A stretch of DNA of 64,000 nucleotides from Malacoraja senta (lineage: Eukaryota), in the NCBI GenBank assembly GCA_038087875.1, contig CM075988.1, positions 23,500,001 to 23,564,000 on the forward strand, given 5' to 3'. A program made the translations under genes and the position numbers. Positions 3,701-63,327 of this stretch are shown in pieces (the first letter of the stretch is position 1; each line of letters begins with the position of its first letter). The notes under the pieces were generated by a model, which searched no databases, was not told the DNA's origin, and saw nothing but the letters and a program-made list of their open reading frames with translations.

Positions 3701-5700
3701 AAGTATAACTATCTGTAGGTAAGAGCACTTTGCTTGACAACATTAAATTATTATCTTGACAGAACTGAGCTATATGATTGGCAAATAATGAGTTCCTAGC
3801 TGAGATATCTGCATTCATATCCCCAATGACATATACACAACAATAATTATTGAATAAAAGAATAGATAAAAGCAAGCATATTTAAATATTCATCCTCATT
3901 CTGATGGCATTCATAGGGTGTATATACATTCAGGATAACAAATTCCTTCTTGTTGTGAGCAAAGTGTATTGCAATACACCAGTCAGCATCAAGCCGAACC
4001 ACATTTATTGATGAGTCAAGCTTCTTGTTCCATAGAATAGCCACATCCCCTGGTATCCTACCTCTGACTAGTACCCTAATGTTCATTTAGCGAGACTAGT
4101 GAGTGCCCCTAGCACCAGCACACTCATTCCCCCCGCAGCAGGCGCAGTGCTCGATCCGATGACTCCAACCCTGCGCAGCTCGTATTAGCGCCGGACAAAT
4201 GCCCCTTCTGGTCAGAGCTCCAGATTGTACATTTCGCCAACCTCATTACATTCCACAGATACTTTAAATGAACAGTATCTACTGTGTACAGTGTCAATCT
4301 TTTGACAGGTAACCTCATGGCCAAGTTTTTCTTTAAGATACACAGATAAAGTTTTGGCGCCTAGGTCCGGTGAAAGCTTGGAGGCAAAAACACTCACCAG
4401 CTTAGTCTTGATCATTTTAATGTTACCCGCAGCTCCGGTACCAATAATAGGCATAGCGTTACTAGATTTCTTTCTCTGCCCGGTGGTAATAGTGCACAAA
4501 TTTGGCTTACCAACAGTGTTCTCTGGAGCATGACGTTGACCCTTTTTCACAACATGACTCCACTTTGGAGAGTCTTGCAACGTTAAACCACTGGGACTAT
4601 TCATTTCCGTTGCCCTCTCCACGTTTAAGGCAAGGCCCTCCACCGCAGCCCTCACTCCGACAACCAAGCCAGAGGCTCCTGCCGATGCAGCTCCCAGTGC
4701 TGTGTCTGCCATGCCAATGGCTCCATCATCGCCACCGACGCATCCGGACCCCCGCCCCGAGTCAGGTCAGTGGTGCACTCCAATGCACACACTGGAGTAG
4801 TGATCAAGGTGCGCTCCAATGCACCCACTCGCTGATCAATTTCCACTGTGATGGCACGAAAATCTTCGCTTACATCAGCCTGTAGCTGCATGACGTGCTT
4901 CATAGATCAGACCTCAGCGTACAGCTGCTCCATTCTCCCAAGTAGGCTCGAGACATCCATGTTAGTAAATGTCACCGGTGGCAGCTCATCCAAGTAATGA
5001 GACACAAATCTGGGAGTATTCTCCCCACACTCATTCATTACTTTAAGGCAACTCTTTATGTTGTTAACGTCTTTCTGTGCCCCTTTATGGGAAACGTTCC
5101 GCTGTGTAGTGCGGCAGAGTTCAAACAGAACTTTCTTCGAGGACTCTATCCACTCAGAATCAAAAGTGTTTGCAGCCAAAAGGACGATCTCATCCTGGCT
5201 TAATGTCTTAATTTTTACAGCAAGAAAGTTAAGTAACTCGTCCTCAACAATAACCTTATCGTCAACAGTCTTGTAGATCTCAGGCTTTACTCTAGACCGG
5301 CCAAGACCAAGAGCAATGCCTGCCACCTTCGACTGCCAGTTGCCCGTGGCACCGGCTCCCCCGCTGCCTCTTGCCCAGCTCCAAGCTCCGGATCTCCACT
5401 GCTCCACGTCTAGGCTGTCTCAAGCGACGGGCTCCGCTGCCCAGCTCCAAGCACCACTGCCTCCTGGCCCAGGTCGGGCCCGTCTTGGACCCCGGCTCCG
5501 GCTGCACGCCCAGCACCGAACTCGGCGCCCCCTCCACCGGGCCTGGACTGCGACTCTCTCCCGGCACCGCGCTGCCGTTAAGGACCAGAGTTTTCTTCCT
5601 GCAGCAACTTCCAGGCGACACTCGCCCACTCCTCGCAGGGGTACGTTTTTTTGAAACCCCCCTCCGGGCTCTAATGGAGCCTCGCCGTCATAGTAAATGA
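738..5700 (-). mobile_element. Near full-length, frameshifted non-LTR retrotransposon, RTE-X-like (ORF1 plus APE-RT ORF2)
   Basis: ORF1 pieces 5407-4212 (DELLNFLAVKIKTLSQDEIV...). APE motifs GRIPGDVAILW, IGDMNA, SWLDHCI, SDHIP (4086-3528). RT motifs NYRPIAL, GVRQGGILSPVLFNLYIDDL, YADD, KYLG (2520-1031). AATAAA and (TAT)n tail at ~738-760. Clade assigned from motif style; 5' boundary approximate. Confidence 0.8.
2537..3261 (+). mobile_element. 5'-truncated L1 fragment nested in the RTE-X ORF2
   Basis: HKCSINVRHTLIQFKILHRLYYSK...CDKC closely matches the L1 ORF2 C-terminus at 24263-25243. A-rich tail 3194-3261. 9-bp TSD ACTTATTCC (2528-2536, 3262-3270). Removing it restores host reading PGWNKYVAEYH. 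Confidence 0.9.
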
Positions 5701-35722: not shown

Positions 35723-35922
35723 NNNNNNNNNNNNNNNNNNNNNNNNNNNNNNNNNNNNNNNNNNNNNNNNNNNNNNNNNNNNNNNNNNNNNNNNNNNNNN
35801 NNNNNNNNNNNNNNNNNNNNNNNNNNNNNNNNNNNNNNNNNNNNNNNNNNNNNNNNNNNNNNNNNNNNNNNNNNNNNNNNNNNNNNNNNNNNNNNNNNNN
35901 NNNNNNNNNNNNNNNNNNNNNN
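35723..35922. other. Assembly gap (200 N)
   Basis: Run of N. Confidence 1.
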
Positions 35923-36702: not shown

Positions 36703-37197
36703 AAGGGAGGGGGAGAGAGAGGGGGAAGGAGACAGGGGGGAGAGAGAGAGGGGGAGAGAATGGGGAGAGAGGAGGGAGATGGGGGAGAGAGAGGGGAGGG
36801 AGAGAGGGGGGAGAGGGAGGGGGAGAGAGAGGAGAGGGGGAGAGTGAGGTGGGAGAGAGGGGGAAGAGAAAGAGGGGGTGGAGAGGGAGGAGAGAGGGTG
36901 GGAGAGAAGGGGAGAGGGAGGGGGAGAGAGAGGGGGAAGAGGGAGAGAGGAGGAAGGGAGGGGGGGAAAGAGAAACGGGAAAGAGAGAGAGAGGGTAGCA
37001 AAGAGAAAGAGGAGATAGAGACAGAGGAGAAAGAGGGGAGAGAGGGTAGAGAGAGCAAGGGGGAGAGTGAGGTGGAAGGGAGAAATGGGGAGAGATGGGG
37101 GGAGAGAGGGAGAGAGAAAGGTGAGAGAGAGGGGAGAGAGTGTGTGGAGAGAGAGCGAGAGGGAGAGAGAGAGAGAGAGGGAGAGAGAGGGGGAGAT
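36703..37197. repeat. G/A-rich low-complexity polypurine tract
   Basis: About 490 bp almost purely G/A on the + strand. Confidence 0.9.
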
Positions 37198-37797
37198 AAA
37201 ACAGTGATAAGAGATGCACCTAATTTATCCCCTAAAGACGTCCGCATAAAGCAAGTAGACTGACATGAAATTGGACATGTTCTTTAGATTAGGTTCATTT
37301 TGAGCGAATTAGAAGAAGTTCTGAACCATAGAATGGGCTGCAGATCAACCAATGATTAAGACAGCTGGTCGAAGTCTGAAATGTTGGAAAGAGAAACATA
37401 ACTTCTGGAAATGGATGGCAAGAGTCCATAGATCTTCAGGTGATGTCGGATCTCCAGGGGATAACGTCTCCAGAGATCCCAATATTCATAGGCTCTTGGA
37501 GAAGAATTAGGCCATTCGGCCCATTTAGTCTACTCCACCATTCAATCATGGCTGATCTATCTTTCCTTCTCAACCCCATTTTCCTGCCATCTCTCTATAA
37601 CCCTTGACACCCGTACTAATCAAGTCTCCAGAGATCTCCATGTTATGTCAAGTCACCAGAGATCTGAAGAATCCAGTCTGAAGAAGGGTCTCAACCCAAA
37701 ACGTCACCCATGCCTACTCTTCCAGAGATGCTGCCTGTCCCGCTGAGTTACGCCAGCGTTTTGTGTCTATCTTCAGACAATCTATTGACACAAAATG

Positions 37798-37933
37798 TTA
37801 AAGAAGGAACTGCAGATGCTGGAAAATCGAAGGTACACAAAAATGCTGGAGAAACTCAGCGGGTGCAGCAGCATCTAGGGAGCGAAGGAAATAGGCAACG
37901 TTTCGGGCCGAAACCCTTCTTCAGACACTTCCT
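37798..37933 (-). mobile_element. Short Penelope terminal-repeat insertion with hammerhead-like motif
   Basis: Reverse complement of the array-unit segment GTCTGAAGAAGGGTTTCGGCCCGAAACGTT...CAGTTCCTTCTTTAA. 15-bp TSD TATTGACACAAAATG (37783-37797, 37934-37948). Confidence 0.85.
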
Positions 37934-44220: not shown

Positions 44221-44353
44221 CTCTAGGTGCTCTGTGCCACCAGTCAATGACGTTTCAGCTTTGCCAAGTCCTGGTTTAAAACTTCAATAAACAAACATGT
44301 TTTGCTCCTTGTAAGCCCCGTTTGTCATCTTCCCCTCAGCCAGCAATGAACCA

Positions 44354-44448
44354 GTCTGAAGAAGGGTTTCGGCCCGAAACGTTACCTTTTTCCTTCGCTC
44401 CATAGATGCTGCTGCACCCGCTGAGTTTCTCCAGCATTTTTGTGTACC
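44354..44448 (+). mobile_element. Single hammerhead-bearing Penelope terminal fragment, same subfamily as the array, nested in an older Penelope remnant
   Basis: Nearly identical to the array-unit segment and ends at the same TTTTTGTGTACC. TSD AATGAACCA (44345-44353, 44449-44457). Confidence 0.85.
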
Positions 44449-44661
44449 AATGAACCATTCTACATTGATTCCTTGAATATCGTCTGCTTTGATCTGTCCT
44501 TTTCACACCTTACACTTCCATATCTCTAGTTTCCCTCTCCCCTGACTCCCAGTGTGAAGAAGGGCCTCGACCTGAAACGCCACCCATTCCTCCTCTCCAG
44601 AGATGCTGCCTGTCCCGCTGAGTTACTCCAGCTTTTTGTGTCTATCTTCGGTGTAAAGTTA

Positions 44662-46908: not shown

Positions 46909-47123
46909 TAGACACAAAATGCTGGAGTAACCCAGCGGGGCAGGCAGCATCTCTCGAGAGAAAGAATGGGCGATGTTTCGGGTCGAGACCCTTCCTCAGA
47001 CGTCTGAAAAAGGGCCCTCGACCCGAAACGGCACCCATTCCTTCTCTCCAGAGATGCTGGGTTACTTCAGCATTTTGTGTCTACTTTCGGTTTAAACCAG
47101 CATCTGCAGTTCCTACCTACACA
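46909..47123. mobile_element. Inverted pair of Penelope terminal fragments
   Basis: Minus arm 46909-47001, plus arm 47002-47123. Flanks TTAGAGTTCATGGA and TTAGAGTTCTTGGA (14 bp, 1 mismatch). Confidence 0.75.
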
Positions 47124-48530: not shown

Positions 48531-48776
48531 CGTGAGAGTGTGTGTGTGAGAATGTGTGTGTGTGTGTGTGAGAGGGCACGTGTGTGTGTGTGAGAGTGTT
48601 TGTGACAGTGTGTGTGATTGTGAGAGTGTGTGTGTGAGATTGTGAGAGTGTGTGTGAGAGGGCGCGTGTGTGTGTGTGTGAGAGAGAGTGTGGGTGAGAT
48701 TGTGAGAGTATGTGTGAGAGTTAGAGTGAGAGTGCATGTGAATGAGTGTGTGAGTGTGTGTGCACAAGTGTGAGAA

Positions 48777-48822
<46 letters not shown>
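48531..48822. repeat. Compound (TG)n/(GA)n microsatellite
   Basis: Visible directly. Confidence 0.95.
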
Positions 48823-50232: not shown

Positions 50233-50612
50233 AACACACCCAGAGTGCAGAATGGAAGACCAAGCTGTGGTTTGCATGAAGTGAAAGTTCCATATATTAA
50301 ATGAAACAGACCTTCTGGCCAATCTGATTACTGTCGTTCATGCTCCATACAATCCTCTTTCTCTTCTCTTGATCTCAATCTTTCAGCATATTAAACAATC
50401 CTTTCACCCTAAAAAAAGACACAAAGTGCCGGAGTAACTGCAGCGGATCAGGCAGCATCTCTGGAGAACATGGATACGTGATGTTTTGATTAGCGCCCTT
50501 CTTCAGATTGAGCCCCAACCAGTCTGAAGAAGGGACCCAACCCAAAACATCATCTACAAACTGATCAGTCTGTAGAAGTGGCCCACACCCAGCCACAATC
50601 ATACAATCATAC

Positions 50613-53600
50613 TCGTCAAGGTATGCCTACTTTGAAGAAGTTCTCCTCCTCTCTCCGGAGACTGTTCCACACCCAACTCGCTAACTGCCTTTTTTCCTTT
50701 CTTCTCCCCACCCCCTATCAGTCTGAAGAAGGGTTTCGGCCCGAAACGTTACCTATTTCCTTCGCTCCATAGATGCTGCTGCACCCGCTGAGTTTCTCCA
50801 GCATTTTTGTGTACCTTCGATTTTCCAGCATCTGCAGTTCCTTCTTTAACACTTTGTCTACTCCACTGCGAAATCTCGTCAAGGTATGCCTACTTTGAAG
50901 AAGTTCTCCTCCTCTCTCCGGAGACTGTTCCACACCCAACTCGCTAACTGCCTTTTTTCCTTTCTTCTCCCCACCCCCTATCAGTCTGAAGAAGGGTTTC
51001 GGCCCGAAACGTTACCTATTTCCTTCGCTCCATAGATGCTGCTGCACCCGCTGAGTTTCTCCAGCATTTTTGTGTACCTTCGATTTTCCAGCATCTGCAG
51101 TTCCTTCTTTAACACTTTGTCTACTCCACTGCGAAATCTCGTCAAGGTATGCCTACTTTGAAGAAGTTCTCCTCCTCTCTCCGGAGACTGTTCCACACCC
51201 AACTCGCTAACTGCCTTTTTTCCTTTCTTCTCCCCACCCCCTATCAGTCTGAAGAAGGGTTTCGGCCCAAAACGTTACCTATTTCCTTCGCTCCATAGAT
51301 GCTGCTGCACCCGCTGAGTTTCTCCAGCATTTTTGTGTACCTTCGATTTTCCAGCATCTGCAGTTCCTTCTTTAACACTTTGTCTACTCCACTGCGAAAT
51401 CTCGTCAAGGTATGCCTACTTTGAAGAAGTTCTCCTCCTCTCTCCGGAGACTGTTCCACACCCAACTCGCTAACTGCCTTTTTTCCTTTCTTCTCCCCAC
51501 CCCCTATCAGTCTGAAGAAGGGTTTCGGCCCGAAACGTTACCTATTTCCTTCGCTCCATAGATGCTGCTGCACCCGCTGAGTTTCTCCAGCATTTTTGTG
51601 TACCTTCGATTTTCCAGCATCTGCAGTTCCTTCTTTAACACTTTGTCTACTCCACTGCGAAATCTCGTCAAGGTATGCCTACTTTGAAGAAGTTCTCCTC
51701 CTCTCTCCGGAGACTGTTCCACACCCAACTCGCTAACTGCCTTTTTTCCTTTCTTCTCCCCACCCCCTATCAGTCTGAAGAAGGGTTTCGGCCCGAAACG
51801 TTACCTATTTCCTTCGCTCCATAGATGCTGCTGCACCCGCTGAGTTTCTCCAGCATTTTTGTGTACCTTCGATTTTCCAGCATCTGCAGTTCCTTCTTTA
51901 ACACTTTGTCTACTCCACTGCGAAATCTCGTCAAGGTATGCCTACTTTGAAGAAGTTCTCCTCCTCTCTCCGGAGACTGTTCCACACCCAACTCGCTAAC
52001 TGCCTTTTTTCCTTTCTTCTCCCCACCCCCTATCAGTCTGAAGAAGGGTTTCGGCCCAAAACGTTACCTATTTCCTTCGCTCCATAGATGCTGCTGCACC
52101 CGCTGAGTTTCTCCAGCATTTTTGTGTACCTTCGATTTTCCAGCATCTGCAGTTCCTTCTTTAACACTTTGTCTACTCCACTGCGAAATCTCGTCAAGGT
52201 ATGCCTACTTTGAAGAAGTTCTCCTCCTCTCTCCGGAGACTGTTCCACACCCAACTCGCTAACTGCCTTTTTTCCTTTCTTCTCCCCACCCCCTATCAGT
52301 CTGAAGAAGGGTTTCGGCCCGAAACGTTACCTATTTCCTTCGCTCCATAGATGCTGCTGCACCCGCTGAGTTTCTCCAGCATTTTTGTGTACCTTCGATT
52401 TTCCAGCATCTGCAGTTCCTTCTTTAACACTTTGTCTACTCCACTGCGAAATCTCGTCAAGGTATGCCTACTTTGAAGAAGTTCTCCTCCTCTCTCCGGA
52501 GACTGTTCCACACCCAACTCGCTAACTGCCTTTTTTCCTTTCTTCTCCCCACCCCCTATCAGTCTGAAGAAGGGTTTCGGCCCGAAACGTTACCTATTTC
52601 CTTCGCTCCATAGATGCTGCTGCACCCGCTGAGTTTCTCCAGCATTTTTGTGTACCTTCGATTTTCCAGCATCTGCAGTTCCTTCTTTAACACTTTGTCT
52701 ACTCCACTGCGAAATCTCGTCAAGGTATGCCTACTTTGAAGAAGTTCTCCTCCTCTCTCTGGAGACTGTTCCACACCCAACTCGCTAACTGCCTTTTTTC
52801 CTTTCTTCTCCCCACCCCCTATCAGTCTGAAGAAGGGTTTCGGCCCGAAACGTTACCTATTTCCTTCGCTCCATAGATGCTGCTGCACCCGCTGAGTTTC
52901 TCCAGCATTTTTGTGTACCTTCGATTTTCCAGCATCTGCAGTTCCTTCTTTAACACTTTGTCTACTCCACTGCGAAATCTCGTCAAGGTATGCCTACTTT
53001 GAAGAAGTTCTCCTCCTCTCTCCGGAGACTGTTCCACACCCAACTCGCTAACTGCCTTTTTTCCTTTCTTCTCCCCACCCCCTATCAGTCTGAAGAAGGG
53101 TTTCGGCCCGAAACGTTACCTATTTCCTTCGCTCCATAGATGCTGCTGCACCCGCTGAGTTTCTCCAGCATTTTTGTGTACCTTCGATTTTCCAGCATCT
53201 GCAGTTCCTTCTTTAACACTTTGTCTACTCCACTGCGAAATCTCGTCAAGGTATGCCTACTTTGAAGAAGTTCTCCTCCTCTCTCCGGAGACTGTTCCAC
53301 ACCCAACTCGCTAACTGCCTTTTTTCCTTTCTTCTCCCCACCCCCTATCAGTCTGAAGAAGGGTTTCGGCCCGAAACGTTACCTATTTCCTTCGCTCCAT
53401 AGATGCTGCTGCACCCGCTGAGTTTCTCCAGCATTTTTGTGTACCTTCGATTTTCCAGCATCTGCAGTTCCTTCTTTAACACTTTGTCTACTCCACTGCG
53501 AAATCTCGTCAAGGTATGCCTACTTTGAAGAAGTTCTCCTCCTCTCTCCGGAGACTGTTCCACACCCAACTCGCTAACTGCCTTTTTTCCTTTCTTCTCC

Positions 53601-53971
53601 CCACCCCCTATCAGTCTGAAGAAGGGTTTCGGCCCGAAACGTTACCTATTTCCTTCGCTCCATAGATGCTGCTGCACCCGCTGAGTTTCTCCAGCATTTT
53701 TGTGTACCTTCGATTTTCCAGCATCTGCAGTTCCTTCTTTAACACTTTGTCTACTCCACTGCGAAATCTCGTCAAGGTATGCCTACTTTGAAGAAGTTCT
53801 CCTCCTCTCTCCGGAGACTGTTCCACACCCAACTCGCTAACTGCCTTTTTTCCTTTCTTCTCCCCACCCCCTATCAGTCTGAAGAAGGGTTTCGGCCCGA
53901 AACGTTACCTATTTCCTTCGCTCCATAGATGCTGCTGCACCCGCTGAGTTTCTCCAGCATTTTTGTGTACC
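50613..53971 (+). repeat. Tandem array of ~12.8 x 263-bp Penelope-derived units, each with a hammerhead-like motif (retrozyme-like), flanked by a 7-bp direct repeat
   Basis: Exact 263-bp period (ORF track 50718, 50981 ... 53611). Only three substitutions noticed (51269, 52058, 52760). ATCATAC at 50606-50612 and 53972-53978. Confidence 0.95.
50721..50752 (+). ncRNA. Candidate minimal type I hammerhead ribozyme (copy 1 of 13, repeated every 263 bp)
   Basis: GU-CUGAAGA-A-GGGU(UUCG)GCCC-GAAA-C-GUU^AC: both core boxes, a 4-bp stem II with UUCG loop, palindromic ACGU stem III, NUH triplet ending at 50750. Caveat: stem I is only 2 clear bp. Confidence 0.6.
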
Positions 53972-54210
53972 ATCATACTGAAGGATCAAGATTCAAGATT
54001 CAAGAGAGTTTATTGTCATGTGTCCCAGATAGGACAATGAAATTCAGCACAACAGAACATAGTATGCATAAATAAATACAGAACTGATCAGTGTGACCAT
54101 ATACCATTGAATATATATATATACACACATAAATAAGCAGATAACGTGCAATGGGCTATTAATGTTCAGTTTTGTTTGAGTTGAGTTTAATAGCCTGATG
54201 GCTGTGGGGA

Positions 54211-62120: not shown

Positions 62121-62826
62121 ATGTTAAGGCAGTCTCCATTTTTATCTGTCCCTTCACCAGATATTTTATGATCGATAGGCAATGACTAGGCCAAGCAATG
62201 GATCCCACTCAGACTTTCAATGCCTTTGTTCACCGGCATTTCCTCAATCAGCAGCTTCATAGAACATTCATCATAAACCCGAGAGAGGTAGAGAGAGACC
62301 AGTGAATGTTTGACAGTGTCTCGTAACAGCTACAGTAAAACTGTAACAGTTTTATTCCTGTCCAGAGATTAACATGCAAAGTTTTCACAGACAGCAACAA
62401 GTCCCACTGCCCTTCACCCACTCCAGTCCCCAACCCTGGGCAAGTTTAATCAGCGTTAATCCTTTCCACTTTCCTCTGGGGAAGGGAACATTTGCAATAG
62501 CAGGGAGCGTTGGGGAGGGAGAAGGGGAGGAAGGAGGAGGGAGAGGGAATAGGAGAGCAGAAATCTAGGCCATTGGACTGGGGCTAATTCCAGCCCTTCC
62601 CCGTCCTCCAAAGATTCCGTGGAATTGGTGAGATTCTTTCTTTAAACAACTGAAAGATTTCGCCCCTGGAGGATGGAGAGAGGGTGGAGACCTCTGCTCC
62701 TGATGAGGGATGAGGGTGATGAAGGAGGCCGAGCCTGCTTGGACGCAGAGAGGATGATTCCACTAGTTGGAGAGTCTAGGACCAGAGGCCGTAGCCTCAG
62801 AATAATCGGACATACCTTTAGAAATG

Positions 62827-63040
62827 TTTAAGAAAGAACTGCAGATGCTGGAAAAATCGAAGGTGGACAAAAATGCTGGAGAAACTCAGCGGGTGAGGCA
62901 GCATCTATAGAGAGAAGAAATAGGCGACGTTTCGGGTCGAAACCCTTCTTCAGACTGGTCTTGACCCGAAACGTCGCCTATTCCTTCTCTCCATAGATGC
63001 TGCCTCACCCGCTGAGTTTCTCCAGCATTTTTGTCTACCT
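62827..63040. mobile_element. Inverted pair of Penelope terminal fragments inserted in a CR1 remnant
   Basis: Minus arm 62827-62956, plus arm ~62957-63040. Perfect 14-bp TSD TACCTTTAGAAATG (62813-62826, 63041-63054). Confidence 0.85.
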
Positions 63041-63327
63041 TACCTTTAGAAATGAGATGAGGAGGAATTTCTTTAGTCAGAGGGTGGTGAATCTGTGAAT
63101 TCTGCTCCTGTAACTTCTGAACCTATGCTTTTGGGGGAAACCCGTGCCTTTACACCCAATGTTTTCCATTCTATTGCTTGTTTCCTTCCCCAACAAAGCG
63201 CTTGTCAAGTTTCAGAAGATCAATCGGTTTGTCTGTATAAACTCACACTCCAACCTCTCCCCAGTCGGCCCTTCTCAGTGAACTGGTCGGAGGTGAAAGA
63301 GACAGCGTCGCTCAGTGTAGACGGGGA

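Follow-up and report, generated by a model that had tools for sequence, protein, structure and literature searches.

We analyzed a stretch of 64,000 nucleotides (nt) from Malacoraja senta (assembly GCA_038087875.1, contig CM075988.1, positions 23,500,001 to 23,564,000 of the forward strand), referred to below at its full length as the window. On its plus strand, positions 50613-53971 are occupied by 12.8 head-to-tail units of 263 nt, each of which maps onto a Penelope-like element (PLE) with a large internal deletion; such shortened elements are called mini-PLEs here. The limits of the array were taken from Tandem Repeats Finder, from mapping onto a PLE at another locus (L031, see below) and from the array ends. 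Tandem Repeats Finder described window positions 50612-53971 as a 263-bp period present in 12.8 copies, with 99% matches, 0% indels and a score of 6699. The 3.4-kb array contains 13 hammerhead-like ribozyme motifs, 11 intact and 2 with a G-to-A change at position G12 (G12A). A preliminary description, made from the letters alone, had claimed a tandem array of 13 near-identical hammerhead-bearing units, and repeat finding, unit comparison and a pattern search all bear this out.

Sequence variation within the array is very limited. Unit identity is 99.6-100%, and units 1-12 depart from their majority sequence at three positions in total (G>A at 51269, G>A at 52058 and C>T at 52760), all three of them CpG transitions. 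The two G>A changes affect the identical unit position, G12 of the GAAA box. Consecutive units are joined exactly at 12 of 12 junctions, with no added bases. The array is non-coding (the longest stop-to-stop frames per unit have 97 amino acids on the minus strand and 61 on the plus strand) and has no long terminal repeats (LTRs). Its GC content of 0.48 is in the low range given for retrozymes. Far from the array, at 35723-35922, lies an assembly gap of 200 N, and the window has no other run of N.

Copies elsewhere in the genome identify the source of the unit. We searched the assembly of 1.94 Gb (6182 contigs) and scored 40 of 1379 candidate loci; at 25 loci outside one array, unit positions 77-263 were followed directly by positions 1-78, at 100% identity. 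The fetched loci are 98-99% alike copies of a longer element, and unit position 263 is contiguous with position 1 inside every PLE copy. At locus L031 (G000:C421) the element unit measures 4122 bp (L031:321-4442, a 4.1-kb PLE), begins with TTCGATTTTCC... and terminates with ...CATTTTTGTGTACC. Upstream of it, part of its 3' end is present as a second copy (119-320 matches 4241-4442), and the element is flanked by short direct repeats of the target. An open reading frame (ORF) of 800 amino acids matches RVT_1 (E 3.9e-6) and then GIY-YIG (E 7.8e-4), with both Pfam scores slightly below the curated cut-offs (27.2 versus 29.6 bits and 20.1 versus 22.6 bits, respectively). The encoded reverse transcriptase protein has 2326 homologues at E<=1e-10, and the matches listed carry RVT_1, DUF8422, HTH_animal and, in some cases, GIY-YIG; the protein atlas clusters for the ORF are assigned RVT_1, GIY-YIG, HTH_animal and DUF8422 at 0.97.

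A single ORF with reverse transcriptase followed by GIY-YIG, and a partial tandem terminal repeat, identify the L031 element by its sequence as a canonical endonuclease-bearing Penelope-like element with a pseudo-LTR. This PLE parent is 98-100% identical to the array unit and is present at many loci of the same genome, so that the preliminary view of the array as Penelope-derived and Penelope-dependent gains an autonomous parent in the same genome. The nearest named relatives of the reverse transcriptase protein, among the matches listed, are elasmobranch proteins with 64-68% identity, in keeping with the earlier guess that the DNA came from a cartilaginous fish. A second stop-to-stop frame of 503 amino acids (L031:453-1964, plus strand) lies upstream of the reverse transcriptase ORF and overlaps it; it has no Pfam match and may represent either a separate ORF1 or, by way of a frameshift, an extension of the protein at its N terminus.

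By blastn against the PLE monomer (L031:321-4442), the 263-nt unit resolves into PLE nt 1-137 and nt 3995-4122, with a 2-nt CC overlap at the join. In the natural phase of the element, the first complete unit lies at 50816-51078 on the plus strand, with PLE 5' nt 1-137 (5' untranslated region) at 50816-50952 and PLE 3' nt 3995-4122 at 50951-51078; this layout recurs every 263 nt. The unit is thus no free-standing satellite; it is the PLE with ~3.86 kb lost internally. The deletion junction (...AACTGCC|TTTTTTCC..., first copy at 50673-50707, plus strand, located by exact 35-mer search) defines the 263-nt variant. All 13 occurrences of the junction 35-mer in the assembly, with up to 2 mismatches allowed, are in this array. 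With T7 replacing T6, the junction is also found at C4022 (L036/L037), a second, older locus with its own 10-bp duplication. The 3' breakpoint of the array unit is common to four other loci, and derived substitutions are common to three of these (L026, L034/35 and L041). Because the junction recurs at a second locus with its own duplication, and because L026, L034/35 and L041 share derived substitutions, mini-PLEs have transposed repeatedly, and a small lineage of ~253-264-nt mini-PLEs was mobilized more than once. Splicing was considered as the cause of the internal deletion and is ruled out by the junction overlaps of CC or longer and by the differences between junctions from locus to locus.

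Both boundaries of the array have the form expected of an insertion. A 7-bp target-site duplication, ATCATAC, was read at 50606-50612 on the left and at 53972-53978 on the right, and the flanks share a word of 8 nt when compared against the mismatched-pair control described below. The C at 50612 can be counted with the duplication or, equally well, as the base that opens the array. The final unit ends precisely where the PLE does, at its 3' terminus (...CATTTTTGTGTACC / GTGTACC, 53971), and the first unit is 5'-truncated, starting at PLE position 60. Since ATCATAC flanks both sides and the end coincides with the PLE 3' terminus, we read the whole array as one block inserted by the PLE machinery. 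What had been described as a retrozyme-like array is accordingly a duplication-flanked insertion that ends where the PLE ends. No paralogous empty site was obtained; the right flank is itself a dispersed repeat starting 14 nt past the duplication (53986-54200), which is abundant in the genome, with 2889 first-look candidates and copies ~90% alike.

The array is one of a set of insertions. The preliminary description had suggested a genome-wide search for further arrays, and 12 other independent mini-PLE loci were examined (13 insertions in all), the exact 263-nt junction being confined to this array. The 12 loci have different deletion junctions, retain ~114-169 nt from the 5' side and ~120-222 nt from the 3' side, and consist of 1.07 to 13 units with lengths of 253-384 nt. 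Mini-PLE array lengths range from 0.46 to 5.0 kb, none of them much longer than a single PLE cDNA. At 10 of the 12, duplications of 5-14 bp that abut the insert were read by eye. As a control, the longest word shared by two flanks was determined, excluding words present in the PLE. A word of at least 7 nt was shared by a locus' own flanks at 11 of 13 loci and one of at least 10 nt at 9 of 13, versus 9.6% and 1.3% of mismatched flank pairs (n=156). This routine is crude: at L028 its best word lies away from the edge of the insert, and for L041 it gives a 5-nt word other than the TAAGA duplication read by eye. Flank words and the recurring junction together indicate elements mobilized in trans that insert with target-site duplications. 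The largest sister array, L024 (G000:C1:28902231-28907229), carries an 11-bp duplication (TCTTCTAAATC) and consists of 13 units of 384 bp. Its 12 complete units do not differ from one another, and among these insertions it is probably the youngest. Two pairs of loci, L034 and L035 (G000:C3248) and L038 and L039 (G000:C1338), each represent one insertion with the same flanks, found twice per contig in opposite orientation, as the result of either inverted segmental duplication or assembly duplication.

The 3' ends of the insertions fall into two classes. Seven of the 13 end at GTGTA(CC), and the remaining 6 end 37-45 nt into the next unit; for the latter, the template must therefore have been longer than one unit. 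This second class, ending in ...TTCCTTCTTTAACAC at 37-45 nt past the canonical terminus, comprises L026, L027, L034/35, L036/37, L038/39 and L040. Old dispersed copies in the window also end at the second site (unit positions ~243-246), which may be an alternative start for cDNA synthesis.

Within arrays, variants are almost always confined to one unit. The window array has one private and one shared variant, L025 has 13 private and one shared, L026 has 7 private, and L024, L027 and L028 have none. Such near-exclusively private variation fits arrays that were born with identical units, and not stepwise unequal exchange.

Each unit carries a minimal type-I hammerhead motif. In copy 1 (50721-50752, plus strand), recognized by sequence, by pattern search and by the features described in PMC4209133, the order is as follows: GU of the 2-bp helix I (50721-50722, pairing with AC at 50751-50752), the CUGAAGA box from C3 to A9 (50723-50729), an unpaired extra A (50730), helix II with GGGU/GCCC and the loop UUCG (50731-50742, G 50731 pairing with C 50742), G12-A14 (50743-50745), the palindromic ACGU (15.1-16.1, 50746-50749) and U17 (50750), with the predicted cut between 50750 and 50751. 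Pattern search found further intact motifs on the plus strand in copies 2 (50984-51015), 4 (51510-51541), 5 (51773-51804), 7 (52299-52330), 8 (52562-52593), 9 (52825-52856), 10 (53088-53119), 11 (53351-53382), 12 (53614-53645) and 13 (53877-53908); the C>T change at 52760 belongs to the unit of copy 9 and lies outside the motif. Unit comparison placed the G12A changes in copies 3 (51247-51278, plus strand, changed at 51269) and 6 (52036-52067, plus strand, changed at 52058). The boxes in type-I order (CUGAAGA...GAAA-CGU-U) are thus complete in 11/13 units and carry G12A in 2/13. The pattern CTGANGA-N(6-30)-GAAACGT has 16 matches in the window versus 0.03 expected from 100 shuffles, 11 of them in the array and 5 dispersed (37898 and 62927 on the minus strand; 44356, 47583 and 60319 on the plus strand).

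The features of the motif are those of PLEs. Minimal hammerheads of PLEs are described as having the two boxes, a nucleotide separating positions 9 and 10.1, a G10.1-C11.1 pair and a palindromic 15.2/16.2 without loop 3 (PMC4209133), and to judge from its sequence the array motif has all of these, the extra A included. The preliminary description had counted the extra A after CUGANGA as a caveat; it is no defect, because it is among the listed marks of PLE minimal hammerheads, conserved in these motifs (PMC4209133). The same source describes PLE minimal hammerheads as acting as dimers and gives a helix I of 2 bp for a D. virilis variant. In the parent, the motif lies within the terminal repeat, whose two copies (L031 119-320 and 4241-4442) flank the ORF with reverse transcriptase and GIY-YIG. 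Helix II was recovered by RNAalifold in 11 window copies. Position 17 is C (GUC) in 9/13 dispersed window copies, which belong to older subfamilies; the array family has GUU.

A second conserved structure lies between the hammerhead and the PLE 3' terminus. It is an 8-bp hairpin in the PLE 3' tail (50771-50806, plus strand; AGAUGCUG at 50771-50778 pairing with CAGCAUUU at 50799-50806), found in the RNAalifold consensus of the 11 window copies, repeated in every unit and kept in 11/11 aligned copies across subfamilies. Its pairs are nearly invariant, hence without covariation support. The hairpin is a candidate recognition structure for the reverse transcriptase.

Outside the array, unit positions ~108-246 form a dispersed repeat with ~20 copies in the window by blastn, on both strands and in some cases head to head. 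A solo, 5'-truncated copy of the same PLE family at 44354-44448 (plus strand) is 99% identical to unit positions 108-204. It begins 2 nt ahead of the CUGA box, ends with GTGTACC and is flanked by AATGAACCA (44345-44353 and 44449-44457). Another same-family copy at 37790-37926 (minus strand, blastn, 97.8% identity) does not stop at GTGTACC but continues for ~42 nt into the next unit. A shared 5' end of the old copies at CAGU|CUGA was considered; it marks only where the likeness between subfamilies stops, and is a genuine end only for the 44354 copy. Older PLE tails are also found in inverted pairs, head to head, that meet within the hammerhead motif or immediately ahead of it (46912-47114, 62822-63041 and 50479-50552), and such pairs would fold as long hairpins. 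Elsewhere in the window, 36707-37196 and 48538-48820 are long low-complexity tracts of purine-rich (GA)n-like and (GT)n/(GA)n sequence.

Together, the above observations place the array among known kinds of elements. Newt satellite 2 and Schistosoma Sm-alpha are few-hundred-nt tandem or SINE-like repeats with type-I hammerheads, whose weak helix III favors dimer action; cleavage is proven for their motifs, which possess a true helix III hairpin and a longer helix I. The array resembles them as a few-hundred-nt repeat with type-I hammerheads and differs in being without a helix III hairpin.

The array also resembles the metazoan non-LTR retrozymes described by Cervera & de la Pena 2020 (PMC7229834). 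These, too, are repeated head to tail, with a few hundred bp per repeat, sizes ranging from dimers up to large multimers and one type-I hammerhead per unit; they are non-coding, have no LTR and a GC content below 50%, show target-site duplications of more than 4 bp and co-occur with PLEs. The published retrozymes have canonical type-I hammerheads with loop-loop contacts, whereas the array has the minimal PLE type without loop 1 and with helix I open and of 2 bp, and in this it departs from the 2020 definition; minimal variants are set apart there as the PLE/Terminon type. The circles of the published retrozymes are highly self-paired and were shown by northern blot, in contrast to the circle predicted for the array, which is weakly paired.

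With the PLE minimal hammerheads of Cervera & de la Pena 2014 (PMC4209133) the array shares the boxes, the unpaired nucleotide after A9, the G10.1-C11.1 pair and the palindromic 15.2/16.2 without loop 3, which implies dimer action, as well as the location in a repeat flanking an ORF with reverse transcriptase and GIY-YIG, and the presence of dispersed and inverted solo copies. It differs in its helix II (4 bp versus 6-8 bp), in its helix I (2 bp, as in the D. virilis variant, versus 4-5 bp) and in the GUU triplet of the array family.

Vertebrate tandem hammerhead repeats derived from PLE terminal repeats have already been described, including those of one chondrichthyan species, with a mean consensus of 363 bp (bioRxiv 10.64898/2026.07.22.740005). 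The novelty implied by the preliminary description was to this extent too high. Those vertebrate retrozymes are, like the array, tandem repeats with type-I motifs of the minimal or canonical form, and they share homology with the terminal regions of PLEs. The preprint describes a PLE link inferred by phylogeny in Xenopus; here the parent is 98-100% identical, the deletion junctions are exact and the arrays are single insertions flanked by target-site duplications. Li, Clavereau & Pollet 2026 ask, as operational criteria, that a repeat be tandem and that two or more consecutive units contain a complete type-I motif, whether canonical or minimal. Given 12.8 copies of 263 bp, within the ~150-450 bp class, and the motif in at least two consecutive units, the array appears to qualify as a non-LTR retrozyme by these criteria, as judged without their rnabob and minimum free energy filter. 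A literature search on PLEs or ribozymes in cartilaginous fish gave no ribozyme paper among the matches listed. The array belongs to the PLE-derived non-LTR retrozymes and is not a new kind of element or ribozyme.

We consider the array to be the product of one retrotransposition event, a multimeric cDNA of a non-autonomous derivative, shortened by deletion to 263 nt, of a PLE that is currently active, and put the probability of this reading at about 0.6. Its DNA-level part, namely a PLE-made multimeric insertion, flanked by target-site duplications, of a deletion derivative that kept both PLE ends and the motif, is highly probable. In the cycle we propose, neighboring motifs in a transcript of at least two units would pair via the palindrome ACGU to form a double hammerhead, which would cut after GUU, at 50750 + 263n. 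The 263-nt monomer would be ligated into a circle, the PLE reverse transcriptase with its GIY-YIG nuclease would copy the circle by rolling-circle reverse transcription from a preferred start site, and the multimer would be inserted at a staggered nick. This is the model put forward for PLEs and non-LTR retrozymes (PMC4209133, PMC7229834). Its ribozyme and circle steps are more tentative than the insertion itself, and we give them slightly less than even odds.

Several observations weigh against this reading. The preliminary description had noted a short stem I, and the 2 bp of helix I are indeed what the sequence allows; with a helix II of 4 bp including a U-G pair, both helices are shorter than in the usual PLE minimal hammerhead, which has a helix I of 4-5 bp and a helix II of 6-8 bp (PMC4209133). 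The covariance-model search that the preliminary description had suggested was negative: Rfam hammerhead models matched nowhere in the window at the gathering score, nor in 50300-51500 at E<=10. This silence is expected, because the motif has no helix III hairpin. Three other Rfam matches at E<=10 in the left flank (MIR856, Ms_AS-8 and HOXB13-AS1_1) were put down to chance, MIR856 corresponding to the inverted PLE-tail pair at 50479-50552. In computed folds, the intermolecular 4-bp ACGU helix is possible but weak, and a hairpin that would compete with it, GUUUCG/CGAAAC, equals helix II in stability (-5.0 versus -5.1 kcal/mol). The double-hammerhead fold reaches -13.3 kcal/mol versus -29.8 kcal/mol for the minimum free energy structure of the dimer, 16 kcal/mol above it, and the active dimer fold is thus predicted to be disfavored. 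The predicted circle, with cuts at 50750 + 263n, is 66% pyrimidine and 47% paired (-45.9 kcal/mol, z = -1.63 versus shuffles); as modeled it does not look rod-like and is weakly self-paired, and published retrozyme circles are described as highly self-paired (PMC7229834). Low in vitro activity is reported for metazoan minimal hammerheads (PMC4209133). At the DNA level, the 5' ends of the 13 insertions are not clustered at the predicted cut site. A single insertion, duplicated as L034 and L035, has 2 units in one copy and 1 in the other, so unit number can change after insertion, or in assembly. The two G12A units are spaced three units apart, which could reflect a later 3-unit duplication instead of two independent CpG decays.

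An alternative is a PLE-made multimer, flanked by target-site duplications, that arose without ribozyme cleavage or a circle. The reverse transcriptase would then have copied a linear transcript of more than one unit, or jumped from the 5' end to the 3' end between mini-PLE RNAs, as proposed for the partial tandems of full-length PLEs; the hammerhead-like motif may be passive, or part of a conserved 3' tail that the enzyme recognizes. Full-length PLE copies do show a like head-to-tail partial duplication, and it is the whole ~100-nt tail with its invariant 8-bp hairpin, and not the motif alone, that is conserved between PLE subfamilies in the window. The computed folds and the low reported in vitro activity of minimal hammerheads (PMC4209133) point the same way, and overlaps of 1-12 nt at the deletion junctions point to template switching by the enzyme. 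However, 12 letter-perfect junctions would come more easily from a template that was circular or tandem from the start than from 12 separate jumps, and PLEs of many phyla are described as conserving exactly these boxes, this extra nucleotide and this palindrome (PMC4209133). We regard this explanation as the strongest competitor, although an unlikely one.

Local satellite growth is less probable still. Here a PLE-type insertion of one or two units, with its duplication, would have been expanded in place by unequal crossing-over or replication slippage, and local amplification is the mechanism favored by Li, Clavereau & Pollet 2026 (bioRxiv 10.64898/2026.07.22.740005). Insertions of 1.07 units (L036) and 1.5 units (L030) are present, the two copies L034 and L035 differ in unit number, the exact 263-nt junction is limited to this locus, and G12A recurs at a 3-unit spacing. 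Against this stand the lack of a higher-order repeat pattern, with variants nearly all private in 6/6 arrays analyzed, the several very young arrays that have 5-12 complete units and zero variation (L024, L028), and array lengths that do not greatly exceed one PLE cDNA. An assembly artefact, in which the unit is real and its copy number was inflated or collapsed by the assembler, is very improbable: units that are 99.6-100% identical are hard to assemble, and L034/L035 and L038/L039 resemble duplicated contig stretches, but the array has clean unique flanks with a duplication, three unit-specific variants inside it, no N run nearby and similar arrays at many loci.

The replication of PLEs and their hammerhead-bearing passengers is so far a model, and the published vertebrate link rests on co-occurrence and trees. 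The evidence from this genome is more direct, consisting of a near-identical autonomous parent, graded deletion derivatives with visible junctions, arrays bounded by target-site duplications and two preferred 3' ends. These observations together argue that the multimers were made at the cDNA stage and not by slow satellite growth. The added value lies in a very clean parent-offspring series and in the evidence for insertion of ready-made multimers. For specialists this is useful support, and it offers a good experimental system. A bolder interpretation, which we hold to be possible and on balance doubtful, is that the arrays are one-step rolling-circle reverse transcription footprints of ribozyme-processed RNA circles, left by a PLE still active in a cartilaginous-fish genome, that new retrozymes are arising now from the autonomous element via microhomology deletions, and that cDNA synthesis has two discrete starts, one 37-45 nt inside the following unit and one at the 3' end of the PLE. 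If this were true, the genome would hold parent, newborn offspring and insertion scars together, and the hypothetical replication cycle of retrozymes and PLEs would become directly testable in a vertebrate.

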